This document shows, piece after piece, positions 7,993 through 41,733 of a DNA stretch of 54,231 nucleotides (position 1 is the stretch's first letter; each line of letters begins with the position of its first letter). The DNA lies in NCBI GenBank assembly GCA_002897915.1, contig BDTS01000023.1, positions 1-54,231 on the forward strand. Direction: 5' to 3'. This DNA comes from a bacterium BMS3Bbin09 (GTDB taxonomy: Bacteria > Nitrospirota > Thermodesulfovibrionia > UBA6902). The notes below the pieces were generated by a model. The model was not told the origin of the DNA. It did no database searches and worked only from the letters and a program-made list of their open reading frames with translations. The position numbers and the translations under genes are program-made.

Positions 7993-8910
7993 TTAAGCGA
8001 ACAGCCCCGTACTTAAATATCTGTCACCCCGATCAGGGAATATAACCACGACCTTTTTCTCTTTTCCAAGCTTCTTTGCTACCTTCAGCGCGGCCCATGC
8101 TGCGGCCCCTGAGGAGATGCCCGCGAGTATCCCTTCTTCCTTTGCAATGCGCTGAGACATGGCTGCCGCATCTTCATTGGTGACCGGTATGACCTCGTTG
8201 AAGATATCAGTATTCAGGACGCCGGGGAAAAATCCCGCCCCGATCCCAGCTATCTTGTGCGGGCCTGGTTCGCCTCCTGAGAGAACGGGTGAGGCAGCGG
8301 GTTCGACAGCTGCTATCCATATGTCTGCATTATTAGACTTAAGGACCTCTCCTGTGCCTGTTATCGTGCCTCCTGTGCCTACACCAGCAACAAAACCGTC
8401 GATCTCTGCTCCGAGTGCTTTCATGATCTCCACGGCGGTCGTCTTTCTGTGTATCTCGGGATTTGCGGGATTCTCGAACTGCATCGGCATGAAATAGTCA
8501 GGATTCTTTTTAAATATCAGTTCAGCCTCTTCAACCGCTCCCATCATACCTTTGGGTCCGGGAGTAAGCACCAGTTCCGCGCCGAATGCCTGGAACATCT
8601 GTCTCCTTTCAAGTGACATGGTCTCTGGCATTGTAAGGATCAGACGGTATTTCCTGACAGCGGAGATGAGTGCGAGCCCGATCCCCGTATTCCCGCTTGT
8701 AGCTTCGATGATCGTTCCCCCTGGCTTAAGCTTTCCTTCACGTTCGGCTGCTTCTATCATCGAGAGGGCGATCCTGTCCTTGACAGAGCCTCCGGGGTTG
8801 GATCCTTCAAGCTTTGCCCATATATCGGCGTCTTCCGGACCTGGGATCCTGTTCAATTTCACAATTGGTGTGTTGCCTATAAGTTTGATAATATTTTCAA
8901 GTGGCTGCAT
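7993..8910 (-). CDS. cysK: Cysteine synthase A (O-acetylserine sulfhydrylase)
   Basis: [11 protein letters not shown] (PLP lysine), [35 protein letters not shown]. Confidence 0.95.
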
Positions 8911-10466: not shown

Positions 10467-12881
10467 TTATTTAACACAGGAGCAAGCGCAACTGACCTCA
10501 GCTGGTTTGCTGCCTTTCAATGTTATCGAATAAAACTGAATAAATTCAATTTTTTTGTATAAATAGTTTCTTTTCAATGTTACGTTTGGGAACCCGGCGC
10601 TTTCAGCTGCTTCTTTGAACCTTTTATCGGTCAAAGCTCCTGAAAGGCATGCGTTCCACATCTCTTTATCCCTCTTCAGGTATCCGGGAACGGGTTTGTC
10701 GGAAACAATATCAGAAATAATGAACCGGCCTCCAGGTTTTAATATTCGAAATATTTCGTCCATAACTTTAGTCTTGTCTTCAGTGAGATTGATAACACAG
10801 TTTGATATGACAAGGTCGACCGAATTATCGTCAACAGGAAGCTCCATGATGTTACCAGACCTGAATTCAACATTATGATAACCGAGGGCGTCTCCGACCT
10901 TTTTGGCGCTTTCACTTGCCTTTGCTACCATCTCGTCCGTCAGGTCAATGCCGATCACCCTGCCTTTTTTACCGAGTTTTCTTGCAGCGATAAAACAGTC
11001 TATCCCTCCGCCGGCCCCGAGATCGACTATAGTCTGTCCGGCTTTAATGGAAGCCAGTGCAGCCGGGTTGCCACAGCCGTATGAGACATCAAGTACCTCG
11101 TTGGGTATGTGAGCGAGGTCCTTCGGGTTATAGCCTGTTGGACAGTAGTATTCCGCTACAGGGGCATATGCAGCCTTTGAGAATTTCTTTTTTACCGTTT
11201 TTGTGACATGGCCTTTGATCTCCGGCTTGCATACATCTTCATCATCCTCGACATCGACCGACAGAACGCAGGAGCAGTGGTAGCATCCAACGTCAAAATT
11301 CTTGTCAATAGTCTTTAGCCCGGCGCCGAAATGCCCGGGAAGTTTTGAATCCATGGCGTTATAAATAGTGGGCGCTGAATATTCCCTGGTGTTCTGGGGT
11401 GCTACTGCCTCGGAGGCCAACTCCCATATAACGTCCTCGAACAGGGACTTGTAAGTCGAGCAATAGGGATCTTGAGCGGTGATCGAACCCTTTCCTGTGT
11501 CGACCTTGCTTGCGTAATAACTGTGGGATGTGCATCCGCCGCCGCAAAAATACTCGAGGTAACACTCACTGCATTCGGCCTTGTCCTGAACGCTGTTGTC
11601 ACGGCCTTTTTGCATTACCTTTGAATCGAGCCATATCTCTTTCAGGGATCTTTCCCTGACCGAACCGGCGTTAAAGTGCTTGTCGCCGTTCAAAGAGGCG
11701 CATGGGTAAACATTGCCGTCCGAATTGACGCAGACTTTTTCAAAACAGTTATTGCAGAGGTCGTTCTTTCTGCCCCTCTTGGTCCTGACCCTGACCTTTA
11801 ATGATTCGACGTTATCGAATATTATTTCTTTTTCCTTATATTCATTCTTGAGTTTTTTCATTGCCTTCGCGATATTGTCGGAAGGTACAAAGAGTTCGTT
11901 CATATGATCCACGCTCCGACCCTTTGCATGCATCCAGAGTACATTGTGTTCCTGTATGCCGAGCTTTGAGAGGAAACGTGAGGTCTTTGCTATATCTTTT
12001 TCGTTTAACTTGCTGATGGCTGTGGAGACAATGGGGATGATTCCTATGCTCATGAGCTTTTTGATACCGTCGACCGCCGCGTCAAAGCTGCCTTTTCCGC
12101 GCAGCTTGTCATGGATCTCTGCGTTCTGACCTTCCAGACTGACCTGAATCAAAAGCCTGGGGCTGACCAGCTTTTTTAATTCAGCGATCTTTCTGTTATC
12201 AAAGAGGGTAGCGTTTGTAAGCACAATAACCTCACGCTTCTTTGTTTTAGTAATGTATTTTATAAGGTCGAATATGCCTTCCTTGATAAAGGGCTCGCCG
12301 CCTGTGATATAAAAGCGCTTGACTCCGAGCTTAATAGATTCGTCCACGACCTTTTTGAATTCATCCACGGTCAATTCATTCTTAAGTACCTTCCCCGCAT
12401 CCACAAGGCAGTGTTTGCACCTGAGGTTGCAGGCCAGAGTAAAATAGATCCAGAGTTCTTCCAGTTTTTTCGGGGCGATCACCTTGCTTCTGCCCGGGTA
12501 AACAGGTGTCTCGAATTTATCTGCTGATACGAACTCGAGCATTCTTGTTGCAGTGAGGAATTCAGAGATCTCCTGTTTCGCTTTTTTCTTGTCAGGGAGA
12601 TTGTGTTTTTTGATTATAGCATTTTGAATATCGGACAATGAATTCTTACCGTTACAGAGCTTAAGGACTTCCGCGCCCGTATGGTTCACGCTGACCCAAT
12701 TGGGTGACTTGGGGTCAATAAACAACGATATGCCTTTTTTCTGTTTTTTGATATGGTCAGGAGAGAAGAGGATATCATCAGGGTCAAAAGGTTTAAGCTC
12801 CGGATCAATGATCTTCCATTCTTTCAGTTCATATTGCTTGAGTCTGTCTTCTCTTCCTGTATCGCAACAACTTTTTGCCAT
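10467..12881 (-). CDS. Fusion: PqqD/RRE-like N-domain + radical SAM/SPASM + ArsM-type SAM methyltransferase
   Basis: VNHTGAEVLKLCNG (PqqD-like); CNLRCKHC and TGGEP; GNVYPC...CSECYLEYFCGGGC..DPYC (SPASM); SYGCGNP, DLGAGGGID, ISNCVINL, WNACLSGA (ArsM). Confidence 0.88.
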   Translation of the reverse strand: MAKSCCDTGREDRLKQYELKEWKIIDPELKPFDPDDILFSPDHIKKQKKGISLFIDPKSPNWVSVNHTGAEVLKLCNGKNSLSDIQNAIIKKHNLPDKKKAKQEISEFLTATRMLEFVSADKFETPVYPGRSKVIAPKKLEELWIYFTLACNLRCKHCLVDAGKVLKNELTVDEFKKVVDESIKLGVKRFYITGGEPFIKEGIFDLIKYITKTKKREVIVLTNATLFDNRKIAELKKLVSPRLLIQVSLEGQNAEIHDKLRGKGSFDAAVDGIKKLMSIGIIPIVSTAISKLNEKDIAKTSRFLSKLGIQEHNVLWMHAKGRSVDHMNELFVPSDNIAKAMKKLKNEYKEKEIIFDNVESLKVRVRTKRGRKNDLCNNCFEKVCVNSDGNVYPCASLNGDKHFNAGSVRERSLKEIWLDSKVMQKGRDNSVQDKAECSECYLEYFCGGGCTSHSYYASKVDTGKGSITAQDPYCSTYKSLFEDVIWELASEAVAPQNTREYSAPTIYNAMDSKLPGHFGAGLKTIDKNFDVGCYHCSCVLSVDVEDDEDVCKPEIKGHVTKTVKKKFSKAAYAPVAEYYCPTGYNPKDLAHIPNEVLDVSYGCGNPAALASIKAGQTIVDLGAGGGIDCFIAARKLGKKGRVIGIDLTDEMVAKASESAKKVGDALGYHNVEFRSGNIMELPVDDNSVDLVISNCVINLTEDKTKVMDEIFRILKPGGRFIISDIVSDKPVPGYLKRDKEMWNACLSGALTDKRFKEAAESAGFPNVTLKRNYLYKKIEFIQFYSITLKGSKPAEVSCACSCVK

Positions 12882-13129
12882 TTAATACTCCGATAAATAT
12901 ATTTACTTTTAAAATTATAGAGTTATGTATATATGCCAGGTATAAACTGTGTCTTTCTTTGGAACCTATATAACATAACGACTATTAGCATGGATATTAT
13001 ACCGTTTAATAAATATTTTTAACAATTGTGTGAAGTGGCAAGTAAAATGTCATAATGATCGAGCAACTTAAATGTTGTATATGTGACGTAATTGTTGCTA
13101 TGTGCTGCGCCTGATGGTACTATTATCTC

Positions 13130-14662
13130 ATGTCCAATAACAATAAAACAGACCCGATAGTCCAGAAGAACAGGGAGTTGACCGCAATTCTGGAGGTCAG
13201 CAGGGTGCTTACAACATCCTTTGCCCTTGAGAAGAATCTCCTCTTGGTAATGTCGACCCTCGGGAGCCTGCTCGAGATGCAGAGGGGGTGCGTTTTTCTG
13301 CATGATCCTTTATCAGGGGAGATGCGTATTGTAGCGGCCCACGGGCTCGCAAAACATAATATTGAAAAGGGGAAGTACCGTATCGGTGAAGGGATCGTGG
13401 GCAGGGTCCTTGAGAAAAAGAAACCGATGGTAATACCGAACATCGGGGAGGAACCGCTTTTTTTGAACAAGACAGGTTCAAGGCCCGCAAAGGACGGGAT
13501 ATCCTTCCTCTGTGTTCCCATAATGCTGAAGAACGAAGGGCTGGGGGTGTTGAGTGTGGACAGGATATACTCGGAGGAGCAGGGCAATGTGGAGGACGAC
13601 CTCAGGGTACTGACGATCGTTGCCTCATTGATAGCCCAGTTCATTAAGCTCTGGGAGAGCTACGAAAAGATAGAGAAGGAAAAAGAGAGCCTCAAGAGGG
13701 AGCTGAAGGGCAAATACAGCATCGAGAACATAATAGGCTTGTCAGACAGGATGCAGGAGGTCTTTGAGTCGATCCACCGGGTCGCCCCCTCAAAGGCGAC
13801 CGTACTCCTTCGGGGTGAGAGCGGCACCGGCAAAGAGCTCGTTGCAAAGGCCGTGCATTATATGAGTCCCAGGAGCAAGGGCCCCTTTATTAAATTCAAT
13901 TGCGCGTCCATTCCTGAGGGTCTGCTTGAGTCCGAGCTCTTCGGTCATGAAAAGGGTGCATTCACCGGCGCGATAGCTGCCCGGAAGGGCAAGTTCGAGC
14001 TTGCGGACAAAGGCACGATATTTCTCGACGAGATAGGCGACCTTCCGCTTACCCTGCAACCAAAGATATTGAGGGTCCTTCAGGAGAGAGAATTCGAGCG
14101 TATCGGCAGCGAGAAGACGATGAAGGTCGATGTCAGGATAATAGCCGCGACAAGCAGGAACCTCGAGACACTGGTCTCACAGGGAAAGTTCAGAGAGGAC
14201 CTTTATTTCAGGCTCAATGTCATACCGCTCTTTCTGCCGCCGCTGAGTGAAAGGGAAGAGGACATCCCTGTCCTGATCGATTTCTTCCTGGTTAAGTTCA
14301 ATGAAGAAAATAATCGTTCGGTCTGTCTTGATAAAGGCGCCTTGCAGGTATTTTTAAATTATAACTGGCCCGGAAATGTCAGAGAGCTTGAAAATACCAT
14401 CGAGAGACTTGTTATTATGTCGGGCTCGGAAAGGGTCAAGGCATCGGAACTGCCTGTTAATCTGAGCATCCGGCGGGCAAAGGTATCTATGAAGTCCGAG
14501 TCGTTGACAGCCAATGTCGAGGATATTGAAAAAGAGAATATAATCGGCGCCCTTGAGAAGACCGGCTGGATACAGGCAAAGGCCGCCAGGCTCCTCGGGA
14601 TCACACCACGGCAGATAGGGTATAAGATCAAAAAGTACGGAATAGAAGAAAAGGTTTTGTAG
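13130..14662 (+). CDS. GAF-domain sigma-54-dependent activator (NifA-like architecture)
   Basis: N-terminal GAF (GEGIVG, SFLCVPI), [31 protein letters not shown]-terminal Fis HTH; no nif genes in the window. Confidence 0.92.
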
Positions 14663-14687
14663 GGGCAGGTTTCAAACCTGCCCTTAC
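14659..14687. repeat. GTAG-type REP-like palindrome, copy 1
   Basis: GTAGGGGCAGGTTTCAAACCTGCCCTTAC; overlaps the stop codons of both convergent genes; second copy at 26782. Confidence 0.85.
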
Positions 14688-17302
14688 GTTTTAATTAAAA
14701 AATTATCCTTCACAAACTTTATCTCACCCTCACGGCTTTTTATCTGTCGTTCAAGTCTCGCATCAAGTATCGCAGTCAATATCTCTTTGAAAAGCGGGCC
14801 CGGCGGGTATCCCATTGACTGAAGGTCCTTTCCTGTAAGCTCTGGTTCGATGTTCCTCAGTTTTGTCAGGTAAATTGAGATGGCCTGCTTGCGGTCCTTA
14901 TGTTTGCTCTTTGCCATCATAAATAATACCGTATGAAGGTTAAGCGGAGAGAGCGTGTAATAGATATCCTTCTGGCTTGCGTCCTTAAGCTTGCTGAGCG
15001 CGGTCTTTGAATCTTTGATACCCACAAGCATCTCTTTGCTCACGTTTTTCGGGACCTGAAGTCTCCGCAGGGCCTCGGGCCTTTCCGAAGTGGTAAGTTC
15101 ATCAAGCAGCGCCATAAGAAAGAGATGTGATTTGTGAAGCTCTTCTTCAAAGAAGAGAAGTTTGAACCATGAAAATGTTTCCTGTATGGAAACGAAATTA
15201 TCTTTAAGGGTCTTTGTTATTGCAAGGCCGGGATGTATGAATTTCAGAAGATCCAGTTCAGCGAGCCTTTTGATAGCGTTGACAGGCTCTGTCTCCGTAA
15301 AGAGGAGGTTGAGCTCATCGTACATCCTGGTGCCGGAGAGCTTTTCGAACAACTTCATGCGCACGGCGGTCTTTATTAGCTTCAATGTGTGTTTGCTTAT
15401 CTTAAAGCCGAACCTCTCGGAGAACCTTATCGCCCTGAATGCCCTGGTCGGGTCTTCGATAAAGCTGAGATTGTGGAGTATTCGGATCGTTTTTTCCTTT
15501 ATGTCCCTCTGTCCGCCGTAATAATCAATGAGCTGTCCGAAGTGTTCGGGGTTCAGTTTTATTGCCAGTGTATTAATGGTGAAATCTCTCCGGTAGAGGT
15601 CCTTTTTTATGGATGAGGTTTCGACTGTAGGCAGTGCGGCCGGAGATTCGTAATACTCTGTCCTTGAGGTTGCAACGTCGAGCTTCAGAAACTCGGTTAT
15701 TACGACTGCTGTACCGAACCTTTTGTGGCTCTTGACCTTCAGGTTGAGTTTTTTACCGAGTGCCTGCGCGAACTTTATTCCGTCGCCCTCAATGACAAGG
15801 TCAATATCAAGGTTTGTTTCGCCGCGTATGATGTCCCTGACCGAACCGCCTACAAGATAGGCTGAGTAGCCAAGTTCATCCGCTATCTGCCCGGACAATT
15901 TAAGCAGGTTTAATATCTCGCGCGGGAAGATGGATCTTATCCCGGAGGACATGTTCTTGCCTATTGACGCTTTTTCTGTTATCTTCTCATTTGTACTTAC
16001 TCTGCTTTTTCTGAGCAGACTCTCATAAAGTGACCTTAAGAGGTCAGTCCTTGTTATTGCACCCGTTATTTGGCCGTTCTCGACCACTGGCATGAACCTC
16101 TGGTTCTGCTCTATCATCATTAACTCGACCCTGCTTATCGATGTTAAAGGAGTTACCGAAGGCGTGTCGGTTGTGCAGAATTCTGTGACTTTGCTTTTAC
16201 CGAAGCCGTGGAAAAGGGCCTTTTCAACAGCTTCTCTTGAGAGAAGGCCGTAAAGGGTTTTTTGCTTCAGGACCGGCAGGACATTTACCCCGTATTGTGT
16301 CATTGTCTTTTCAGCTGTCTTTATCGTATGGTTCCAGGGGATGCTTTTAACAGGACTCGTCATTATGTCTTTTGCTGTTTTCGAGGGCCGTATCTTCTTT
16401 TTCAGTGTAACCAGTAGTCTGCTTTCCACCTCTTCAAGCGAGATGTTTTTCATAGCAGCTGACGATGCGTTAGGATGCCCGCCGCCGCCGAGTGGTTTCA
16501 ATATTTCGGATACATCCACCTCGGACGTATGGCTCCTTGCAATTATCTGGACATTTTCTTCCATCATTACAAGCAGGAAGACCACATCTACATCGTCAAT
16601 TTCTCGTATCTTATGCGCCAGAAAAGCGATGTCTCCGATATACTTTTCCCTTGAGGCCATGGCGATCTTTATCCTTATGTCCTGGACCAGGTGGTCCTTT
16701 GCAGAATGGACCAGTTCGTTGAGCAGGTCTATTTCATCGGCACTCAGTTCTTTGGTGATAAAGCTTGAGACTATTTTTAGATTGGCCCCTTTTTTAAGAA
16801 GGTAGGCAGCGGCGATCAGTTCCCTCGTTGTTGTGGAAGGGAAGAGTAGCGAGCCTGTTTCTTCATATATCCCAAGCATTAATATTGTTGCTTCTGCCGG
16901 GGATATGTATATCTTGTCTTTCTGCAGCATCTCAGTAAAAAGTGTGGTTGTCGAGCCAAGCGTCTCAACGACCTCTAATTGTCCCCGAATGTCATTATTG
17001 GAGAACGGGTGGTGATCGTAAATATGGACCGCCACTCCCTTCTTGTCCAGTATCTCCGAGAACTTGCCGATTCTCCCGGGTTTCTTTGTGTCCACCAAAA
17101 TTAGGCGCGTGATCGTCTGGATGTCGATATCCCTGATCTTCCTGATGTCCAGTTCGGGCTGCATAGTGGCAAGGAAGTCACGCACGCTCTTTTCCTGTGA
17201 GCCCGGGAATACGAGGACCGCGTCAGGATAATACTTTTTTGCAGCGACCATTGAGGCGAGGGAGTCGAAATCGGAATTCATATGAGATGTTATCACGTCC
17301 AT
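14684..17302 (-). CDS. DHH/DHHA1-CBS-tRNA nucleotidyltransferase (CCA- or A-adding enzyme)
   Basis: DFDSLAS, YDHH, GGGHP, paired CBS domains, VGGSVRD..DIDLV, DLYRRDFTIN, EDPTRAFRAIRF. Confidence 0.92.
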   Translation of the reverse strand: MDVITSHMNSDFDSLASMVAAKKYYPDAVLVFPGSQEKSVRDFLATMQPELDIRKIRDIDIQTITRLILVDTKKPGRIGKFSEILDKKGVAVHIYDHHPFSNNDIRGQLEVVETLGSTTTLFTEMLQKDKIYISPAEATILMLGIYEETGSLLFPSTTTRELIAAAYLLKKGANLKIVSSFITKELSADEIDLLNELVHSAKDHLVQDIRIKIAMASREKYIGDIAFLAHKIREIDDVDVVFLLVMMEENVQIIARSHTSEVDVSEILKPLGGGGHPNASSAAMKNISLEEVESRLLVTLKKKIRPSKTAKDIMTSPVKSIPWNHTIKTAEKTMTQYGVNVLPVLKQKTLYGLLSREAVEKALFHGFGKSKVTEFCTTDTPSVTPLTSISRVELMMIEQNQRFMPVVENGQITGAITRTDLLRSLYESLLRKSRVSTNEKITEKASIGKNMSSGIRSIFPREILNLLKLSGQIADELGYSAYLVGGSVRDIIRGETNLDIDLVIEGDGIKFAQALGKKLNLKVKSHKRFGTAVVITEFLKLDVATSRTEYYESPAALPTVETSSIKKDLYRRDFTINTLAIKLNPEHFGQLIDYYGGQRDIKEKTIRILHNLSFIEDPTRAFRAIRFSERFGFKISKHTLKLIKTAVRMKLFEKLSGTRMYDELNLLFTETEPVNAIKRLAELDLLKFIHPGLAITKTLKDNFVSIQETFSWFKLLFFEEELHKSHLFLMALLDELTTSERPEALRRLQVPKNVSKEMLVGIKDSKTALSKLKDASQKDIYYTLSPLNLHTVLFMMAKSKHKDRKQAISIYLTKLRNIEPELTGKDLQSMGYPPGPLFKEILTAILDARLERQIKSREGEIKFVKDNFLIKT

Positions 17303-33048: not shown

Positions 33049-33575
33049 TCAGAGCGCTTTATAATACGAGCCTTCGCCGCAGGACCTGCAGACAAGCGTG
33101 CCGCCTATGTTCATCTCTCTCATATCCTGAACGTATTCTCCGCACTTTTCGCAGGTGATCCTCTGCAGGGGCCTGCCCGGCATGTCCTGTTTCGGGATAT
33201 CGACCTTTACTTCTTTCCATTCGAAGAGGTCATCGTCCGGCATTATTTTGTATGCCTCAAGCTGGGCCTTATATTTGTCTTCGATCTCCGGGAAATAGTT
33301 CTTGGCCTTGTCCCTGGCCGCTTCTATTGCCAGTATTCGAACAGCCTTATCGGTCTCAAGGTTCACATAGGTAGCGGCCATCTTCCCGAGGTCAACGAAC
33401 TTCAGCGACCTCTTCCCCAGACTGCAGCCTGTGACCGATTGGATCGCGTCAGTGGCACACCGGTCTATTTCTACATAAACAATGAGTTTTTTCCTGTCCG
33501 CGCCTTTCGGATCCTTTATACCTATCAGGTTGAGTCCGTGCATGCTCATCCTTACTCCCAGGACTTGCCCCGGGC
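33049..33575 (-). pseudogene. 5'-truncated second copy of the fmdE-family gene
   Basis: About 96% identical by eye to 36651-37177 but lacks the start and the HGHLC motif. Confidence 0.85.
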
Positions 33576-33970
33576 GGCAGTGGGCAGAGGTCTGTTTCGT
33601 ACCGAACAAGATCCGCAGCAGCGCCTGGCTGAGCAAAAGAGGTAATGCAGTGACATTATTTAAGGGAATATGAAAATAGCGGGACAGGTGTCCGTTGAAT
33701 CGGTAATTCCAGGTAGATTCATCGGGCAACTTTCGGAATTCTGATCCGTTCCTGGACGATTTTTGGAAAATGACGTATGAGACCCCCTGAAAAAACCTGC
33801 AACCCGGCTTCTTCATATGTTGATGGTGGATTTGGGAACATAATGTTACATTGTAAAATACTTAAGAATCCTTTAGCAAATCGACCCACTTTTAAATTTT
33901 CCAATAGAACATGGTAAAATAAAATATATAGGTAATTATTCTTAAGTTTTATCAATTTGAAAGTAGGTTC

Positions 33971-34777
33971 ATGAAAAGATTAAACCTTATGATAAGACTC
34001 ATATTAATAGCTGCTTTTATATTTTTAGCAGGTCGGGCAGATGCAGAGACTTTTGCAATGGATGCTCATATGGGCTATGGGAGCTTTGAATATGAGGAAC
34101 AGGATTCAGATACCGAAGCGGAATCAACAAGTGATATTTTTGTTTTTGGAGTGTCCGGAGAGTATTCCTTAACTAAAGATTTCTACCTTGGCTTAAACGC
34201 CGACTGGGGTTTTTCAGGGAAAGACGCAGAGGAATGGAAGATTAGCGGTGTCAAAGTTCAGACCAATGACATGAAGGTCCGGGTGCAGTATTATGACCTC
34301 AGGTTTGGCTATAAAAATAACATGGAGAGACTCTTATGGAAGATTTATATCTCAGGCGGATGGGATGGACAACATATTGAAAAAGATGCTTTTGTTGTCG
34401 GTGGTGTTCCCATATCATTTTCCATAAATGAGCAAGACCTGAGTTTATGGCGTGTAGGATTAGGGACATCTGCACAGTACAAGGCAGGGCCGTGGTCAAT
34501 TGACGGACATTTCTCTTATGCAGGATATTTTGAGGGTAAGGGAGAAAGCAGTGTTTTGCCCGGCATTGACTTTGATGCAGAAGGCAATCGCTGGGATTTT
34601 AATTGCGGAGTTTCATATGAAATTGCCAAAAATATTTCAATCAGGCTGGGAGTGCTTTATTCGTTAATTGATTTAAGTAAAAGCGATATAGTAACAGGCC
34701 CTGGCTGGGCTACTGTATTCCCTAAGATCAAGACCAGAACAACAGCCGGTACATTTGGAGTCAACTATCAGTTTTAA
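33971..34777 (+). CDS. Outer-membrane beta-barrel protein
   Basis: Signal peptide ending ADA, amphipathic strands, C-terminal GVNYQF (BAM signature). Confidence 0.75.
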   Translation: MKRLNLMIRLILIAAFIFLAGRADAETFAMDAHMGYGSFEYEEQDSDTEAESTSDIFVFGVSGEYSLTKDFYLGLNADWGFSGKDAEEWKISGVKVQTNDMKVRVQYYDLRFGYKNNMERLLWKIYISGGWDGQHIEKDAFVVGGVPISFSINEQDLSLWRVGLGTSAQYKAGPWSIDGHFSYAGYFEGKGESSVLPGIDFDAEGNRWDFNCGVSYEIAKNISIRLGVLYSLIDLSKSDIVTGPGWATVFPKIKTRTTAGTFGVNYQF

Positions 34778-34842
34778 AATACGGGATAGCGCATGTTCCC
34801 AAATTTAAAGATTCCAGGTAATTTAAAAGGAGGCTGTAAGAA

Positions 34843-35745
34843 ATGAAAACAAAAAATTTATCTTTATTTTTAATTTTAATACTTGTTTTTATTTCTCTTT
34901 TTATTTTTCTTATTAGTTGTGGAGGGAACAAAGATTCAACTACTACAGCACCTCCGCCTGGGAGCTGGGGCACAGCAGGGCTCATTGAGGGGGGTACGGG
35001 GAATGCATATGTCCCCCATGTTTCTATGGATGCAAGCGGCAATGCCATTGCAGTGTGGTATCAGGATGACGGAATCAACATCAACATTTATGCAAACCGT
35101 TATGTAGCAGGGGCAGGCTGGGGCACAGCAGGGCTCATTGAGGGGGGTGCAGGGAATGCTTTTGTCCCCCGTGTTTCTATGGATGGAAGTGGCAGTAATG
35201 CCATTGCAGTATGGTATCAGCATGACGGAACCCGCTACAACATCTGGGCAAACCGTTATGTAGCAGGGGCAGGATGGGGTACAGCAGAGCTCATTGAAAC
35301 GGATGATATAAGAGATGCCCGGAATCCTCAGATCTCTGTAGATGGAAGTGGCAATGCCGTTGCAGTATGGTTTCAGAATGACGGAACCCGCTGGAACATC
35401 TGGGCAAACCGTTATGTAGCAGGGGTTGGCTGGGGCACAGCAGGGCTCATTGAGACGGATGATACAGGGAGTGCAAATAGTCCCCAGGTCTCTGTTGCTG
35501 CTGACGGCAATGCCATTGCAGTGTGGTATCAGGATGACGGAACCCGTGACAACATCCGGGCAAACCGTTATGTGGCAGGAATTGGCTGGGGTACAGCAGA
35601 GCTCATTGAAACGGATAATACAGGAGATGCCCGGAATCCTCAGATCTCTGTAGATGGAAGTGGCAATGCCATTGCAGTGTGGTATCAGAATGATGGAACC
35701 CGCTGGAACATCTTGGCAAACCGGTTTAACAGGATTTTATTATGA
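34843..35745 (+). CDS. Lipoprotein built from about five ~51 aa tandem repeats (probable beta-propeller)
   Basis: Lipobox LISC; repeated WGTA(G/E)LIE...P(Q/H/R)(V/I)S.D..GNAIAVWYQ.DG...NI.ANRY with matching ~150 bp DNA repeats. Confidence 0.85.
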   Translation: MKTKNLSLFLILILVFISLFIFLISCGGNKDSTTTAPPPGSWGTAGLIEGGTGNAYVPHVSMDASGNAIAVWYQDDGININIYANRYVAGAGWGTAGLIEGGAGNAFVPRVSMDGSGSNAIAVWYQHDGTRYNIWANRYVAGAGWGTAELIETDDIRDARNPQISVDGSGNAVAVWFQNDGTRWNIWANRYVAGVGWGTAGLIETDDTGSANSPQVSVAADGNAIAVWYQDDGTRDNIRANRYVAGIGWGTAELIETDNTGDARNPQISVDGSGNAIAVWYQNDGTRWNILANRFNRILL

Positions 35746-35914
35746 AGATTCAGACTCAGATACTTATGGAAATGCATTAGTTCCACAAGATGCCTGCTCA
35801 CAACCTGTTGATTATGTTTCGAATTATGATGATTGTAATGATGCAAATCCAAATGTAAATCCAGATGCAACTGAGGTTTTATTTAATTGCAGAGGGGAAG
35901 GTATGTCCAAATAG
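35730..35914 (+). pseudogene. Fragment with MopE-like/putative metal-binding repeat
   Basis: YYEDSDSDTYGN...ACSQP..YV.N..DCND.NPNVNPDATEV; no start of its own, out of frame with the upstream gene. Confidence 0.65.
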
Positions 35915-36061
35915 GGTGTATTAATGAAAAATATAAATTTAATCCTTTATGTTTTTTTACGAAAATTATTTTAATCAACTACTCTTGCAATTATGGAGTA
36001 CAAATCATTTTTCAATAAAAAAGGACTGAAATAATTATTTTACTTTAAGAACAACACCCTC

Positions 36062-36181
36062 AAGTAGACTGCCGGAAGCTATAAATATGATTGGAATGTC
36101 AGCAGCCTGGCGAGTGGTGGCTATTTTTACCGATTGCAGGCCGGTAAATTTTACAAAGGGAAAAAGCTCATAACGATGAGA
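36062..36181 (+). pseudogene. Fragment resembling a T9SS (Por) C-terminal sorting domain
   Basis: K*TAGSYKYDWNVSSLASGGYFYRLQAGKFYKGKKLITMR with an in-frame TAG; resembles the LASGxYFYRLQAG..KK CTD consensus. Confidence 0.6.
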
Positions 36182-36183
36182 GC

Positions 36184-36390
36184 GGGACAGTCATCTACCG
36201 GTCAAAAATGACCTATGGGAAAAACAAAAAGAAATTTAATGCATATACGGCAGAGGAATTTATAGCAGCCATAACGCAGCACATACCGGAGAAATCGTTT
36301 CAGACCTGTCTGCCGGCAGGCAGGTGGTCAGATATTACGGTTTCTACTCGAACAAGTCACGGGGACTGCGTGAAGATAGGTTATCGTTAA
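36184..36390 (+). mobile_element. IS91-family transposase C-terminal relic, interrupted by a 20 bp palindrome
   Basis: GTVIYRSKMT...AEEFIAAITQHIPEKSFQ-[20 bp insert]-MVRYYGFYSNKSRG. Confidence 0.75.
36305..36324. repeat. 20 bp palindrome CCTGTCTGCCGGCAGGCAGG
   Basis: Removing exactly these 20 bp restores the transposase reading frame; sibling at 20281. Confidence 0.85.
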
Positions 36391-36428
36391 AGTTCTGATA
36401 AACTTTAACATGGATTATTACTTAGGCT

Positions 36429-36620
36429 TCACTTGTATTTTTCTTCGTTTTCGAAAGTCCCTTCAAAACAGCCTGCGGGGCAGCCTCTGCAGGTGGCCGC
36501 AAGTTTTTTGTCTGCTTTATTTTTGCTGGACTGGCAGCAAAATCTGATATGTTCTTTGTCCTGCCCGGTCGCCCTGTCCAGCCAGTTAAACTTTTTTCCG
36601 CATTCGGGACATTCTTTCAT
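36429..36620 (-). CDS. Small Cys-rich protein (possible Zn/Fe-S binder)
   Basis: GAGGA RBS; CPECGK, CC, CRGCPAGC; directly downstream of fmdE. Confidence 0.6.
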   Translation of the reverse strand: MKECPECGKKFNWLDRATGQDKEHIRFCCQSSKNKADKKLAATCRGCPAGCFEGTFENEEKYK

Positions 36621-36650
36621 CTTTCCTCACGCAATGTGCCACTTCTGCTG

Positions 36651-37253
36651 TCATAGCGGTTTATAATACGGTCCTTCGCCGCAGGACCTGCAGACAAGCC
36701 TGCCGCCCATGTTCATCTCTCTCATATCCTGAACATATTCTCCGCACTTTTCGCAGGTGATCCGCTGCAGGGGCCTGCCCGGCATGTCCTGTTTCGGGAT
36801 ATCGACCTTTACTTCTTTCCATTTGAAGAGGTCCTTGTCCGGCATTATCTTATAGGCCTCAAGCTGGGCCTTATATTTGTCTTCGATCTCCGGGAAATAG
36901 TTCTTGGCCTTGTCCCTGGCCGCTTCTATTGCCAGTATTCGAACAGCCTTATCGGTCTCAAGGTTCACATAGGTAGCGGCCATCTTCCCGAGGTCAACGA
37001 ACTTCAGCGACCTCTTCCCCAGACTGCAGCCTGTGACCGATTGGATCGCGTCAGTGGCACACCGGTCTATTTCTACATAAACAATGAGTTTTTTCCTGTC
37101 CGCGCCTTTCGGATCCTTTATACCTATCAGGTTGAGCCCGAGCATGCTCATCCTTACGCCGAGGACCTGCCCCGGGCAGAGGTGGCCGTGCGTCTTGACG
37201 GAGATGTCGAGGAGTTGTTGGAATTCAGGATCGATCTTCATTTCTGCTGTCAT
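36651..37253 (-). CDS. FmdE/FwdE family protein with C-terminal C4 zinc finger
   Basis: HGHLCPGQVLGVRM, VEIDRCATDAIQ..TGCSLGK, CEKCGE..CRSC; ATG at 37253 with GGAGG RBS. Confidence 0.9.
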   Translation of the reverse strand: MTAEMKIDPEFQQLLDISVKTHGHLCPGQVLGVRMSMLGLNLIGIKDPKGADRKKLIVYVEIDRCATDAIQSVTGCSLGKRSLKFVDLGKMAATYVNLETDKAVRILAIEAARDKAKNYFPEIEDKYKAQLEAYKIMPDKDLFKWKEVKVDIPKQDMPGRPLQRITCEKCGEYVQDMREMNMGGRLVCRSCGEGPYYKPL

Positions 37254-37510
37254 CTGCGCCTCCTTAATAATCCAATCTACAATCTTTACCCTGATCCTGT
37301 CAATAAAACAGGCTTCTTCTGAATATGATTTAAACATATCCTCATGATTTTATTACAGATTAATTTTATTTATTAAAGATATAATGATATGGGGATTATT
37401 ATTAAAGATTTAAAATTCAATGGTAGGGGTTTCCCTAATGGATTTTAGGATGTGTTAAATGCTTTTCAATATTAAATATAAAAGGACATTTAACCAAAAA
37501 GGAGGTAACC

Positions 37511-38383
37511 ATGAGTAAGAAGAACTCTTTATCCCGTCGTGATCTACTCAAGACGGGCAGTGCTGTAGCTGTTGCAACTGCTGCGACCGGTCTTTTGCCT
37601 GATACAGAGGCAGAGGCTGCAAAAAGGAAAAGGAAAGCGAAAAAACTCCCGCGCTGGGCAATGGTCGTTGACCTCAGGAGATGTATCGGCTGCAGGGGGT
37701 GCTGTATTGCGGACAAGGGAGAATATAATACTGCCCTTGGAAGGTTTAACACTGTTGTTAAAAACGTTGAGTTTGGTGAATACCCCGAGACAGAGAAGCA
37801 CTTCCTGCCGCGACTCTGTAATCACTGCGCCGGAGATGAGAGCAAGGAATGGCAAGTGCCGCCATGTGTAGAAATATGTCCTGAGTCAAAGAGCGGTGAA
37901 AGGCTGAAGATGGGGAAAGAAAAATACAGGACCGGGGCTACTTATAAACGTCCTGACGGCTTGATCCTGTTAGACCCGAAACTCTGTATCGGCTGCTACA
38001 AGTGTGTTGACGCATGCCCGTATGGAGTGAGATCCCCTGACCCTAATGTTAAGCTGACCAGGCCTGACAGAGAAAAGGACTTCGGGGTTGGCAAATGCAC
38101 CTTTTGCCGGCATCGTATTGATGAGGGGATCACGACTTCCTGTACGAATACCTGTCAGGGCAGGGCAAGGAACTTCGGAGATCTGAATGACAAAAGAAGT
38201 ACGGTAGCAAAACTTGCTAAAGAACATAAATTACTGGAAAACAAGGACAAGTCAACCTTGCTGCCGAATGAAAAGACAAATCCTCATGTATTTTATATTG
38301 ATCCTGACGGGATACTGGAGAAGTACAATAAGAAGCTTTCCAAAGAAACAAAATTTGCAGAGTTTAAATCAGGATTTGAATAG
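37511..38383 (+). CDS. Tat-exported 4Fe-4S subunit (TtrB/NrfC/DmsB family)
   Basis: SRRDLLK Tat motif; CIGCRGC, LCNHC, PPCVEICP, CIGCYKCVDACPY, KCTFC, CTNTC, FGDLND. Confidence 0.92.
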   Translation: MSKKNSLSRRDLLKTGSAVAVATAATGLLPDTEAEAAKRKRKAKKLPRWAMVVDLRRCIGCRGCCIADKGEYNTALGRFNTVVKNVEFGEYPETEKHFLPRLCNHCAGDESKEWQVPPCVEICPESKSGERLKMGKEKYRTGATYKRPDGLILLDPKLCIGCYKCVDACPYGVRSPDPNVKLTRPDREKDFGVGKCTFCRHRIDEGITTSCTNTCQGRARNFGDLNDKRSTVAKLAKEHKLLENKDKSTLLPNEKTNPHVFYIDPDGILEKYNKKLSKETKFAEFKSGFE

Positions 38384-38457
38384 AAAGTTAATCATTAATT
38401 AGTGAAATGTGAAATTTAAATTTAATGAATAACTAGATAAAATAAGGAGAAAATATA

Positions 38458-40968
38458 ATGGCAAATCTATCACGCCGAAACTTTATGAAGCTGGGCATCG
38501 CAAGTGGCGCCTTCCTTGCTGCCGGAGAACTCATGTCCCCGTCTCTTGCAGGTGCAGTTAAGGTGAAAATGGGCGGCAAGGATTTTAACTACCTGACAAA
38601 TGCCGAGAGAAAAGGCATTCCTACAGCCTGCTGGTCATGTGTAACAAGATGTGCTGCCATGGGCTTTGTAGAAGACGGCAGGCTGGTCAAGATGGAATCC
38701 AATCCCAAGTCTATAAGGACCCTGGGTAAAATGTGCGCAAAGGGACAGTCAGCTCCCAATGAGGTTTACTTCCCTGACAGGATACTTTATCCAATGAAAA
38801 GGGCAGGTGCACGCGGAGAAGGAAAGTGGAAGAGGATAACCTGGGATGCAGCGCTTACAGAGATCGCAGGAAAGCTGAAAAAACTCCGTGATGACGGACA
38901 TCCCGAAAAATTCATGTTCCATTACGGCAGGATGAAGGGAAGCTCCAGCAAACTGATCAAGAGCGTGTTTCTGGGAACTTACGGGACAAAAACAATTTCA
39001 GGACATACATCGATCTGCGAAGGCGGCAAATGGGTGGCCCAGGAGCTGACCTGGGGCAAGCACTATGACAACTGGGACTTTGACCAGACAAAATTCGTAC
39101 TGAATTTTGGCAGTAACATTCAGGAGGCGCATACCAACCATGTCCCGACATCACAGAGGCTCATAAGGGCAAAGGTAGAAAGGGGAGTAAAGTCGGTAAC
39201 TTTTGATGTTAGATTATCCAATACAGCCGCAAAATCCGATGAATGGATCCCGATCAAACCGGGAACTGACGGCGCTGTCGCCCTTGCCATGTGTAACGTG
39301 GTAATGCAGAATAATCTTTATGATAAGGATTTTTTCAAATTCATCCGAGCAACAGAGAATGTCAATGCATCAGTTGATGAAAAGATAGCAGTTCTCAAGG
39401 CCCACCTTAAGCAATACACACCTGCATGGGCTGAAAAGATCAGCGGGGTCAGCGCCTCAAAGATCGAATCCATTGCAAAGACATTTGCAAATACGAAACC
39501 AGCAGTAGTAATAAGTTACAGGGGTGCGGTTGCCCATTACAATGGCAACGATACAGAGAGGGCAGTCCAGATGCTTGCCGCAATAACAGGCAACATTGAC
39601 AATCCCGGCGGAAGATGCAGGGGAATAGGTCCCAAATGGAAATACCCAAAGGGACCAAAGGACAAACCCAAGGCAAAGAAGCTGAAACTGGCCCACGGCT
39701 TTCCCGGAACAGTAGCATACCCGAATCATGGAGTATGTCAGCAGGTACTGCCGATGATCAAAGACGGCAAGGCAGGAAGACCTGAGGTATACATGTGGTA
39801 CTGCCACAACCCTGTCTATGTTAATGGTGACAACCAGGGAAACATAGACGTCTTGAAAGACGAAAAGATGCTGCCCTTTACCGTGACGTCAAATATAGTC
39901 TATGACGAAGCGAGCAAACTTGCAGACATGATACTGCCTGATGCGACATATCTGGAAAGATGGGACTGGGAAGACATGGTCTGTCCAACCCAGGTTCCGG
40001 AGCATTACATACGCCAGGCCCTGGTAAAGCCGCTTGGAGAGGCAAGGGACCTCGGAGATGTAGTGATAGAGCTTGCAGAGAAGATGGGAATGCCGCTGGG
40101 AGTCGGTGCCTCAAAAGAGGAGTTTGTAAAAACATCACATGAGATGACAGCCAAGGCAGTTAAGGGCTTCCCCGGCTTTGACTACATGAAGAAAAAAGGC
40201 GTATGGCATGACAAGGACGCCAAGCCTAAATATTACCAGCACAAAAAGGAGATCAAGGACCTGGGAGGCGCCATCCTTGATGAAGCAACCGGCGTATACT
40301 GGGACCCGAAGAAGGCCCACGCCAAGCAGCCTGAAAAGGGATATGCCGCGACCAAACATGCATACAAAGGCTATGTAGGGCAGAAGATGGGAGACAAAGT
40401 CTACAAGGGTTTCCCGCCCGACAAGGTCAACAAGACGGGATACCTGGAGCTTTACTCCGGACTATTGAAAATGAAAGGCCATCCGGCTCTTCCAACATAC
40501 GTACCAATACCAACGCATGAAAAGATGAAGTCCAATGAGCTGGTTCTCACTACATACAAGGTTGCGATACATATACATTCAAGGAGCACTCACAGAAAAT
40601 GGCTGAGTGAGGTGTACCATGATAACCCGGGATGGATCAATACAAAGACAGCCGCGGGACTTGGTATCAAGACCGGTGACAAGATCAAGGTCAAATCCAG
40701 TATCGGTGAGATCGTGACCACGGCGAATGTTAATGGGAAAATAGTCCCCGGTGTCATAGCCATTTCAATGCATGTAGGACGTGAGGAATCAGGCAGATAT
40801 GGTTCCGGTAAGAAATCACCCTTTGCACATGATGATGATCCGGATCTCAAGAACAAGTTCTGGGACACCTATGGCACGCATCCTAACTGGATAATTCCAA
40901 ATGCAAATGACCCGATAAACGGACAGCAGGCATGGATGGATACGGTGGTTACGGTTACAAAGGCGTAG
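38458..40968 (+). CDS. Tat-exported molybdopterin oxidoreductase catalytic subunit (Psr/Ttr/Arr-related, DMSO reductase family)
   Basis: SRRNFMK; CWSCVTRC...MCAKG 4Fe-4S site; DRILYPMKR; GHTSICE (probable Cys Mo ligand); ADMILPDATYLERW. Confidence 0.92.
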   Translation: MANLSRRNFMKLGIASGAFLAAGELMSPSLAGAVKVKMGGKDFNYLTNAERKGIPTACWSCVTRCAAMGFVEDGRLVKMESNPKSIRTLGKMCAKGQSAPNEVYFPDRILYPMKRAGARGEGKWKRITWDAALTEIAGKLKKLRDDGHPEKFMFHYGRMKGSSSKLIKSVFLGTYGTKTISGHTSICEGGKWVAQELTWGKHYDNWDFDQTKFVLNFGSNIQEAHTNHVPTSQRLIRAKVERGVKSVTFDVRLSNTAAKSDEWIPIKPGTDGAVALAMCNVVMQNNLYDKDFFKFIRATENVNASVDEKIAVLKAHLKQYTPAWAEKISGVSASKIESIAKTFANTKPAVVISYRGAVAHYNGNDTERAVQMLAAITGNIDNPGGRCRGIGPKWKYPKGPKDKPKAKKLKLAHGFPGTVAYPNHGVCQQVLPMIKDGKAGRPEVYMWYCHNPVYVNGDNQGNIDVLKDEKMLPFTVTSNIVYDEASKLADMILPDATYLERWDWEDMVCPTQVPEHYIRQALVKPLGEARDLGDVVIELAEKMGMPLGVGASKEEFVKTSHEMTAKAVKGFPGFDYMKKKGVWHDKDAKPKYYQHKKEIKDLGGAILDEATGVYWDPKKAHAKQPEKGYAATKHAYKGYVGQKMGDKVYKGFPPDKVNKTGYLELYSGLLKMKGHPALPTYVPIPTHEKMKSNELVLTTYKVAIHIHSRSTHRKWLSEVYHDNPGWINTKTAAGLGIKTGDKIKVKSSIGEIVTTANVNGKIVPGVIAISMHVGREESGRYGSGKKSPFAHDDDPDLKNKFWDTYGTHPNWIIPNANDPINGQQAWMDTVVTVTKA

Positions 40969-40994
40969 ATGATCGATAGGGATAAGTAACAAAT

Positions 40995-41030
40995 GGGATA
41001 TCCCCTCTCTTAATTGGGAGGGGATATCTT
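40995..41030 (+). terminator. Stem-loop (terminator or mRNA stabiliser) between the Mo subunit and chaperone genes
   Basis: GGGATATCCCCTC...GAGGGGATATCTT followed by ATTT. Confidence 0.65.
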
Positions 41031-41067
41031 ATTTCAGATTAATAATTAAATACAAGGAAGAAACCGA

Positions 41068-41733
41068 GTGACAAATGAAATGATCGAAACAGCGACACGA
41101 CGGAGTAATATATACGGGCTGCTTACACTGATTTTCCGTACTGAAATTACCAAACAAGTACTGCAGCAGATCAAGGAACCGGAATTTCTTTCTGCTCTAT
41201 CCAACATGGGGGCCAGACTGGATGACGATTTTTTACAAAAAAATGAAGATGAATTAATTGAGGATCTTGCTGTTGAATATTCAGGATTATTTATTGGTCC
41301 TGATAAACATATTTCTCCCCATGAGTCCATTCATCATGATACAGGTGATGGGGACTGGGGCCAGCTGTGGGGCAGGTCAACCGTTGAGATCAAAAAGTTT
41401 ATTGAGGCAGCAGGGCTTGAATTCAGGCCTGAGTATGCTGGAATGCCCGACCATATCAGTGTTGAGTTTGAATTTATGCGGCAAGCCGCGAAACGTGAGG
41501 CACAGGCCAGGGAAGAAGATGACAGTGATGGAACGCTTTATTGCCTGAAGATGGAGAAAATGTTCATCGAGGAACATCTTATGAAATGGGTTCCTGTTTT
41601 TTGCGACAAGGTTATCGAATCAGCAGGACACTCTTTTTACCGTGAGATTGCGAAGGTGACAAAAAGGTTTATGGAATTCGAAAGTGAAGGGATAGACAGG
41701 TATCTGTCAGAGGCGCAGAAAGAAGCATCGTAA
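41068..41733 (+). CDS. TorD/DmsD family molybdoenzyme maturation chaperone
   Basis: EYSGLFIGP..SPHES, PDHISVEFEFM, FIEEHL..WVP.FC. Confidence 0.92.
   Translation: MTNEMIETATRRSNIYGLLTLIFRTEITKQVLQQIKEPEFLSALSNMGARLDDDFLQKNEDELIEDLAVEYSGLFIGPDKHISPHESIHHDTGDGDWGQLWGRSTVEIKKFIEAAGLEFRPEYAGMPDHISVEFEFMRQAAKREAQAREEDDSDGTLYCLKMEKMFIEEHLMKWVPVFCDKVIESAGHSFYREIAKVTKRFMEFESEGIDRYLSEAQKEAS

Follow-up and report, generated by a model that had tools for sequence, protein, structure and literature searches.

We analysed contig BDTS01000023.1 of the bacterium BMS3Bbin09 (Nitrospirota, Thermodesulfovibrionia; assembly GCA_002897915.1), whose 54,231 nucleotides are called the window below, and focused on one gene on its minus strand together with the gene immediately downstream. 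The first encodes an 804-residue protein, here called the fusion, in which a PqqD/RRE-like domain, a radical S-adenosylmethionine (SAM) domain, a SPASM domain and a methyltransferase predicted to be of ArsM type follow one another in a single chain. The second encodes a B12-binding radical SAM enzyme. The coordinates of these and the other features are listed in Table 1.

The minus-strand translation of the fusion gene ran through all 804 residues without an internal stop, and the plus strand of the same segment was broken by many stops. All motifs quoted from the fusion were present in this translation: MAKSCC (C5, C6), CNLRCKHC (C151, C155, C158) and GCYHCSC (C533, C536, C538) in the N-terminal half, YYCP (C580), SYGCGNP (C603), SNCVINL (C695) and WNACLSG (C745) in the methyltransferase, and SCACSCVK (C798, C800, C802) at the C-terminus. 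Pfam detected PqqD (PF05402) at residues 55-111 with 28.0 bits against a cutoff of 23.4, Radical_SAM at 145-304 (90.6 bits), SPASM at 376-441 (39.8 bits) and Methyltransf_31 at 613-762 (119.5 bits). The original prediction, made from the letters of the window alone, had described a single open reading frame (ORF) with four domains; its coordinates were exact, the ORF lies on the minus strand, and the Pfam domains bore out the architecture. The best 120 of 545 homologs shared 64-100% identity, a length of 707-822 residues and the same domain set, indicating that the fusion is not a chance ORF; the named ones among these 120 were labelled Nitrospirae or Thermodesulfovibrionia.

Table 1. Coordinates of the fusion, its parts and its neighbours in the window, and of ArsS-ArsM single chains in related genomes
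Feature	Position	Strand	Remarks
Fusion gene, 804 aa (P0001)	10467..12881	minus	RRE-like, radical SAM, SPASM and ArsM-type methyltransferase
MAKxCC motif, residues 1-10	12852..12881	minus	clade-specific Cys pair; conserved also at the DNA level
PqqD/RRE-like domain, residues 55-111	12549..12719	minus	Pfam and profile search; P60 and W62 nearly invariant
Radical SAM core, residues 145-304	11970..12449	minus	C151/C155/C158, GGEP motif
SPASM domain, residues 376-474	11460..11756	minus	C376/C379/C384, C394, C437, C440, C446, C450, C474
Linker Cys/His motif GCYHCSC...C551, residues 533-551	11229..11285	minus	tail of the radical SAM half
ArsM-type methyltransferase, residues 556-797	10491..11216	minus	C580, C603, C629, C695, C745; SAM motif DLGAGGG
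C-terminal Cys tail SCACSCVK, residues 798-804	10470..10490	minus	from the translation
B12-binding radical SAM gene, 493 aa	8955..10436	minus	30 bp downstream of the fusion
cysK, cysteine synthase A	7993..8910	minus	448.9 bits, cutoff 350.95; downstream of the B12 gene
Sigma-70-like promoter TTGTTA, 18-nt spacer, TATAAT	12996..13025	minus	10/12 positions; upstream of the fusion
GAF / sigma-54 AAA+ / HTH_8 activator, scores NifA-like	13130..14662	plus	divergent from the fusion; linkage frequent, not constant
ArsS-ArsM fusions	L109:2209-4197; L110:923-2917; L111:1756-3759	plus; minus; plus	Thermodesulfovibrionia genomes G098, G020 and G125

Domains and cysteines of the fusion protein

We compared the methyltransferase half with family models and solved structures. 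The best NCBIfam model of the whole fusion was the arsenite methyltransferase NF008823, which matched residues 575-776 with 252.4 bits. The closest solved structures were Chlamydomonas CrArsM (5evj, E=1.6e-34) and Cyanidioschyzon CmArsM (4fr0, E=1.2e-30; 4fr0 and 4kw7 both near 1e-30). C603, C695 and C745 of the fusion coincided exactly with the cysteines of the YGCG, SNCV and C-L-x-GA motifs of 5evj and 4fr0, which we take to be C72, C174 and C224 in CmArsM numbering. Conservation was assessed in 34 aligned fusions sharing 28-75% identity, the source of all counts out of 34 below; among them, the SAM-motif residues D620, G622, G624 and G626 were invariant.

A tree of 71 methyltransferase domains was then examined. 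It was built by a quick method with SH-like approximate likelihood ratio test (SH-aLRT) support only; the degenerate domain of P0126 (46 bits) was dropped, and the outgroup branch was very long and the root unsure. The methyltransferase domains of the fusions were not monophyletic: the tree demanded a minimum of 10 changes, of which well-supported branches enforced 6, and standalone ArsM-like proteins were interleaved among them. One clade with an SH-aLRT support of 93 united P0001, the canonical ArsM of the same genome and all three ArsS-linked ArsMs. As judged from this nesting and from the three aligned cysteines, the methyltransferase domain is of ArsM type, as the original prediction had assumed; the outcomes named there as refuting it, a placement outside ArsM or non-aligning cysteines, did not occur.

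The ArsM-type cysteines named in that prediction were conserved unevenly. C603, C695 and C745 were each kept in 33 of the 34 fusions, and C629 was a cysteine in 29. The YYCP cysteine, C580, was invariant in the own clade (25/25) and was found in only 13 of the 34. Four conserved cysteines are described for most ArsMs, and the first of BgArsM is said to align poorly (PMC8552651). In the fusion, the invariant C538 of the linker may stand in for the first ArsM cysteine: it was a cysteine in all 34 fusions, and H535 beside it was conserved in at least 90%.

Three further cysteine clusters had been pointed out, at the N-terminus, in the linker and at the C-terminus. All three are present, and they differ in reach. 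Within the own clade (n=25), C6 and all 23 cysteines from C76 to C745 were kept in every sequence and C5 in 24. C5 and C6 were found in 0 of 15 distant fusions, and the N-terminal CC in 2 of 34, so that this pair is specific to the clade. The C-terminal tail was present in 20 of the 25 close relatives and the remaining 5 had no C-terminal cysteine, showing that it is dispensable. Tails of this kind are moreover nothing unusual in ArsMs, since the canonical ArsM of the genome ends in GGACC and ArsS-ArsM fusions end in GGACC, GCSCC or GSSCC. The cluster conserved throughout is that of the linker, through C538.

The radical SAM half resembled peptide- and heme-type SPASM families. Its best named NCBIfam matches were StsB (156.3 bits, cutoff 625) and NirJ2 (149 bits), and none of the named peptide-maturase families in NCBIfam was reached, all scores lying far under the cutoffs. 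C151, C155 and C158 were conserved in 34/34 fusions, and the GGEP motif (G194, G195, E196, P197) was invariant. C376, C394, C437, C440, C446 and C450 of the SPASM domain aligned Cys-for-Cys with CteB (5wgg), in the usual seven-Cys pattern. These SPASM cysteines were kept in 25/25 sequences of the own clade versus 5-8 of the 15 distant fusions, and in only 6-10 of the 34 overall. A profile was made from the first 135 residues of 12 sequences and searched against solved structures; its best relatives were the leader-binding RRE proteins TbiB1 (5v1u, E=6.4e-4), TfuB1 (6jx3, E=0.022) and PqqD (5sxy, E=1); by these profile matches the N-domain is RRE-like.

Relatives consisting of the radical SAM half only, 481-522 residues long, ended directly after [FY]HC[AS]CVL[ST], some with a short Cys tail. 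Because these proteins stop there, the linker cluster of the fusion is the C-terminal tail of its radical SAM half. The known arsenic radical SAM families did not account for this half. With the ArsS model TIGR04167 (cutoff 300) the score was 76.9 bits, the match being confined to model positions 3-148, and Pfam found no DUF3641 in the fusion. Of 124 families with matches at E<=0.01, the 25 best did not include the ArsL model NF040542, to which the fusion can thus have a weak match at most.

Related fusions, neighbouring genes and distribution

When 1.84 billion representatives were searched exhaustively, dozens of further fusions with 28-45% identity emerged that covered residues ~40-795 in one stretch. 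The labels of their sources included Elusimicrobiota, Armatimonadota and Deltaproteobacteria, the commonest phyla in the Atlas clusters of the fusion were Nitrospirota, Acidobacteriota and Thermodesulfobacteriota, and long forms carried a C-terminal DUF5714 domain. By homology, the fusion is not unique and is a member of a large, multi-phylum, uncharacterised family.

The same parts were also joined in other ways. Three proteins (P0134, P0138, P0140) carried the methyltransferase first and the radical SAM/SPASM half after it, and in P0142 and P0162 the same radical SAM half was joined to a different methyltransferase. In addition, ArsS and a full ArsM formed single chains of 662-667 residues in three genomes of the same class, one of them in the own family, and ~17 ArsS matches in the class lay within ORFs of ~606-700 residues; no description of an ArsS-ArsM fusion was found in the literature searched. 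These chains show that radical SAM and ArsM partners, described in the original prediction as separate proteins, are not always so. The occurrence of both fusion orders, and of ArsM fused to its known partner ArsS, points to a substrate shared by both chemistries, and on these sequence grounds the predicted coupling of methylation to radical chemistry is plausible. In two further proteins (P0150, P0163), the RRE/radical SAM/SPASM half, HCxC tail included, was joined to one or two TusA sulfur-carrier domains and no methyltransferase, which hints at a radical SAM half working on a carrier-bound heteroatom.

The B12-binding radical SAM gene was the constant neighbour of the fusion. Among 11 related genome loci, it lay downstream in 8 of the 9 with downstream sequence. 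In the exception, locus L003 (7908-10220; CP070788.1, genome G089), the homolog matched residues 1-655 only and was followed by ribosomal protein genes, and the B12 partner was not found in the genome; this may be an assembly join or a real break. The B12 enzyme of the window carries CxxxCxxC at positions 200/204/207 and ends in WRMKKYDGV, without a Cys tail. It scored under the cutoff everywhere: 217.5 bits for BchE, 189.6 for HpnJ, 168.1 for the P-methyltransferase family and 55.5 against 450 for ArsL (NF040542). Its paralogs stood beside aminotransferase, glycosyltransferase and other radical SAM genes. One of them, on the chromosome of G049 (L103:7362-11877), was 65% identical and lay between a class-III aminotransferase gene and another radical SAM gene.

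Upstream, the activator accompanied the fusion in 7 of the 10 related loci with upstream sequence; of L012 and L101, one had it and one did not. No nifH was found in the genome, and a nif link of the NifA-like activator was rejected. The sigma-70-like element was conserved in the window and in L002, L003, L005 and L010. No -24/-12 element was conserved in 12 aligned upstream regions, and a sigma-54 promoter was discarded as a candidate, TGGCAC-N5-TTGC with up to 2 mismatches giving 39 matches in the window versus 40.9 expected. A riboswitch in the ~130-nt leader was likewise rejected; Rfam gave only three tRNAs across the window. The cysK gene stood beside the cassette in none of the 11 related loci and in the window only, and it is probably not part of the module. 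The other flanking genes varied among loci and were housekeeping-like, with no conserved biosynthetic neighbours around the pair.

Candidate precursor peptides were sought in 9 loci. No small ORF of 12-90 residues was conserved outside the two genes; the conserved ones all lay within these genes, out of frame or antisense to them, and were rejected as peptide genes, and the regions upstream of the fusion did not align as coding sequence. Among 77 metagenome loci, none held a split radical SAM half with a peptide gene. Most methyltransferase-adjacent radical SAM genes there scored 40-57 bits on a profile of the radical SAM half, and the three that were checked with Pfam all carried DUF3641 and were of ArsS type. 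Locus L069 contained a 294-residue radical SAM ORF with 140 bits on the same profile.

We then surveyed 201 genomes of the class, the window's own included, with thresholds of E<=1e-60 for the fusion and E<=1e-100 for the B12 partner. The fusion was present in 48/49 genomes of the own family and the partner in 46/49; both were found in 4/5 genomes of sister family f2 and in 6/7 of sister family f5. The other 139 genomes held one fusion, a 32%-identical DUF5714 form, and five B12 partners at 37-39% identity. In the own family, the fusion was near-universal, single-copy and 62-82% identical. In the genomes compared, the partner started ~35-65 bp after it on the same strand (for example in G041, G105, G079, G103, G008, G049 and G131), with a gap of 100-200 bp in a few other genomes, and the two genes were jointly missing from G077, G021, G027, G047 and G123. 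The fusion and the B12 gene are a near-core module of one Thermodesulfovibrionia order.

Arsenic-related genes were found elsewhere in the window's genome, which is 1.85 Mb in size and 92% complete. An Acr3 pump lay on contig C51, and no ArsS was found in this 92%-complete assembly. A canonical full-length ArsM of 353 residues (C98:652-1713) carried DACCCS, YGCG, SNCV and ECLGG motifs and the GGACC tail and lay outside an ars operon. On a 5-kb contig (C112:58-3629), a TIGR04282/TIGR04283 pair of 'arsenosugar' transferase genes was divergent from a 236-residue membrane protein and a 482-residue MerA-like FAD oxidoreductase, the latter 35-37% identical to the oxidoreductases of L013 and L037. 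A Mo-enzyme at 38458-40968 of the window was rejected as the arsenate respiratory reductase ArrA (170.6 bits versus a cutoff of 1600).

Some distant fusions lay in arsenosugar-type surroundings. The fusion of L013 had three such neighbours: an 'arsenosugar biosynthesis glycosyltransferase' (TIGR04282; 188.5 bits against a cutoff of 134), a FAD oxidoreductase resembling MerA (769 bits for NF004991) and a permease of the PHO4 family, between which it lay, and that of L037 adjoined the same oxidoreductase family (734.8 bits). Metagenome loci L018-L020 showed the classical pairing of ArsM with ArsS, and L020 had ArsR and L019 DUF2064 in addition; the L019 proteins scored 236.5 bits for ArsM (NF008823), 416.4 for ArsS and 190.7 for TIGR04282.

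Possible function and its alternatives

The fusion was compared with four known systems. Like ArsS + ArsM of the arsenosugar pathway, where ArsS is a TIGR04167 protein with DUF3641, it pairs a radical SAM enzyme with an ArsM-type methyltransferase bearing cysteines of the As(III)-binding type; both exist as single chains in the order radical SAM, ArsM, Cys tail, and the ArsS system and a distant fusion share the accessory family TIGR04282. It differs in that its radical SAM half is of SPASM/RRE type and lacks DUF3641, and in being constantly accompanied by a B12-radical SAM enzyme that has no counterpart in the ArsS system. ArsL of the arsinothricin pathway (NF040542) resembles the radical SAM half in being a radical SAM enzyme with a C-terminal Cys-rich tail, and in both cases ArsM-type methylation follows. 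The tail reads RCCLKC in ArsL and [FY]HCxCVL in the fusion, and no ArsQ/ArsN-type genes accompany the fusion. The neighbouring B12-radical SAM enzyme shares with ArsL a CxxxCxxC near residues 194-201, but it has no Cys tail and scores far below the ArsL cutoff. As one preprint describes (bioRxiv 10.1101/2024.02.01.577332), the RCCLKC of ArsL binds As(III), and ArsL truncated there still cleaves SAM but no longer forms the C-As bond; the ArsL radical is 3-amino-3-carboxypropyl, and ArsS uses the 5'-deoxyadenosyl side of SAM.

With ArsM/AS3MT proteins (CmArsM 4fr0/4fsd, CrArsM 5evj), the fusion shares the SAM fold, DLGxGxG and the three cysteines, and a Cys-rich tail like that of the canonical ArsM of its genome. 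Its methyltransferase, however, sits behind 545 residues of radical SAM enzyme, its first cysteine is displaced, and it lacks the C-terminal domain of long ArsMs, the alignment ending at chain residue 281 of 383. The maturases CteB (5wgg), SkfB (6efn), AlbA and StsB have the N-terminal PqqD-like RRE, the CxxxCxxC and the seven-Cys SPASM in common with the fusion, whereas the fusion is joined to an ArsM-type domain, has no precursor peptide gene at the loci examined and belongs to a wider family in which SPASM cysteines are mostly dispensable. No paper on an RRE/radical SAM/SPASM-ArsM fusion was found in a search that covered few subscription journals.

We tentatively propose that the fusion may be a two-active-site enzyme acting on a thiol-bound trivalent metalloid, likeliest As(III), and that together with the B12-radical SAM enzyme it may yield an organo-arsenical small molecule and not a modified peptide. 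The proposal is based on homology and analogy: the ArsM-type domain, the conservation of the cysteine triad and C538, the radical SAM tail, the independent fusions, the arsenosugar-type neighbours of distant fusions, the lack of a conserved small ORF and the linked B12-radical SAM gene. As(III) would be held by C603, C695 and C745, with the help of C580, and methylated from SAM, as in homologous ArsMs. The H535/C538 motif between the two domains might ferry the arsenical into the radical SAM site, by analogy with the RCCLKC tail of ArsL. There, the radical SAM domain would cleave a second SAM and, as in ArsS, a carbon radical would make a new C-As bond. The B12-radical SAM enzyme could add a further alkyl or methyl group or rearrange the product.

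Several observations weigh against an organo-arsenical product. No arsenic gene stood beside the cassette in the own clade, and the window's genome carries its Acr3, canonical ArsM and TIGR04282/TIGR04283 genes on other contigs. The NF008823 score of the fusion (252.4 bits, or 255.2 in a second scan) narrowly missed the cutoff of 263 bits, a cutoff that also leaves out likely true members, since the ArsS-linked ArsM of L019 scored lower than the fusion. The alignment is gapped around C580, and the first ArsM cysteine of CmArsM and CrArsM was offset from it by 4-5 residues. The RRE-like domain retained across the fusion family and the full SPASM of the own clade are peptide-maturase traits. The DUF5714-type relative of G106 adjoined an ABC transporter with no arsenic link, and the distant fusion of L014, next to a patatin-like gene and neighbours without a family match, is contrary or neutral. 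The distribution of arsenic genes points the same way. ArsS was present in 27/49 genomes of the own family and TIGR04283 in 31/49; ArsS occurred in 26 of the 48 fusion-bearing genomes, a coexistence that rules out the fusion as a simple replacement of ArsS in its clade, and 10 of the 48 lacked both ArsS and TIGR04283. A module that is near-core regardless of these genes is easier to reconcile with a housekeeping role than with a specialised arsenic pathway. TIGR04283 without ArsS was commoner in the own family (12/31) than outside the order (7/63; Fisher p=0.003), a signal that is weaker than the ArsS independence, runs in the opposite direction and comes from related, non-independent genomes and incomplete metagenome-assembled genomes.

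The original prediction had also suggested a peptide or Cys-rich carrier as substrate. In this case the fusion would be a peptide or protein maturase, whose RRE docks a Cys peptide or protein encoded elsewhere, or its own N-terminus, for cross-linking by the radical SAM domain and methylation by the methyltransferase. The N-domain profile matches the leader-binding RREs of TbiB1 and TfuB1, the nearest radical SAM relatives are of sactipeptide/ranthipeptide type (StsB at 156 bits, CteB, SkfB, AlbA), and both the seven-Cys SPASM and the MAKxCC just before the RRE are strictly kept in the own clade. On the other hand, the 9 loci lacked a conserved small ORF, all peptide-maturase models scored far under their cutoffs, and the 77 metagenome loci held no split radical SAM half with a peptide. 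Distant fusions mostly lose the SPASM cysteines while keeping the ArsM triad, which a peptide methyltransferase would not need. These results weaken the carrier idea, and we regard a maturase as unlikely.

An element other than arsenic, namely antimony, selenium, tellurium, or the persulfide/thio-species of sulfidic habitats, handled by the same mechanism, seems rather less likely again. It would suit P0150 and P0163, in which the same radical SAM half is joined to TusA domains, known as sulfur/selenium carriers, as well as the near-core status of the module whatever the arsenic gene content and the narrowly missed NF008823 cutoff, and several ArsM-like NCBIfam families are described as selenoproteins without an assigned substrate (PMC13188914). 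However, the nearest relatives by tree and context are arsenic-linked, and a search for selenocysteine variants gave none, since the TGA codons in frame in G103 and G131 are natural stops. The lowest probability among these alternatives falls to a housekeeping pair that modifies a cofactor or lipid, with ArsM-like cysteines that bind a metal centre or act in redox and a metalloid-free product; we consider it very improbable. The near-universal, single-copy and well-conserved occurrence of the fusion across the family is in its favour, as are the best sub-cutoff matches of the B12 enzyme (BchE, HpnJ and a lipid-biosynthesis B12-radical SAM enzyme) and the paralogs near aminotransferase, glycosyltransferase and other radical SAM genes. 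Against these stand the lack of conserved biosynthetic neighbours, a cysteine triad in the pattern of ArsM and the arsenosugar-type genes around distant fusions.

Two radical SAM routes to C-As bonds, ArsS and ArsL, are described in the literature searched. A third radical SAM lineage, unrelated to these two, is joined to ArsM in hundreds of uncultured bacteria of several phyla; if the organo-arsenical proposal is correct, it would widen arsenic chemistry and could account for unidentified organo-arsenicals of anoxic groundwater and sediments. The near-core status suggests that the product may matter to the cell beyond being a by-product of detoxification. Surveys of arsM based on hidden Markov models (bioRxiv 10.1101/2024.10.03.616553) may tally the fusion as ordinary arsenic methylation. 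A bolder version, which we think improbable, is a third route to carbon-metalloid bonds that makes a lineage-wide, physiologically required organo-arsenic (or -antimony or -selenium) metabolite. The SPASM radical SAM enzyme would work on a metalloid tethered to cysteine arms of its own (N-terminal CC, linker HCxC, C-terminal tail), with an RRE repurposed to dock one arm in place of a leader peptide, and the B12-radical SAM enzyme would alkylate the bound intermediate.

Other features of the window

Three further regions of the window were recorded. A molybdopterin oxidoreductase cluster at 33049-41733 comprised a 4Fe-4S subunit (37511-38383), an 836-residue catalytic subunit (38458-40968; PhsA matched best, with a sub-cutoff score of 340 bits), a TorD-like chaperone (41068-41733) and two FmdE-domain genes on the minus strand (33049-33816 and 36651-37337). 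On the plus strand at 34843-35745, a 300-residue ORF without a Pfam or NCBIfam match contained near-identical 15-mers, TGGCAATGCC[A/G]TTGC, at 35037, 35349, 35505 and 35661; their spacing in multiples of 156 bp suggests a protein of 52-residue tandem repeats. At 14684-17302 on the minus strand, an 872-residue protein combined DHH/DHHA1, two CBS domains and a poly(A)-polymerase/CCA-adding head domain.

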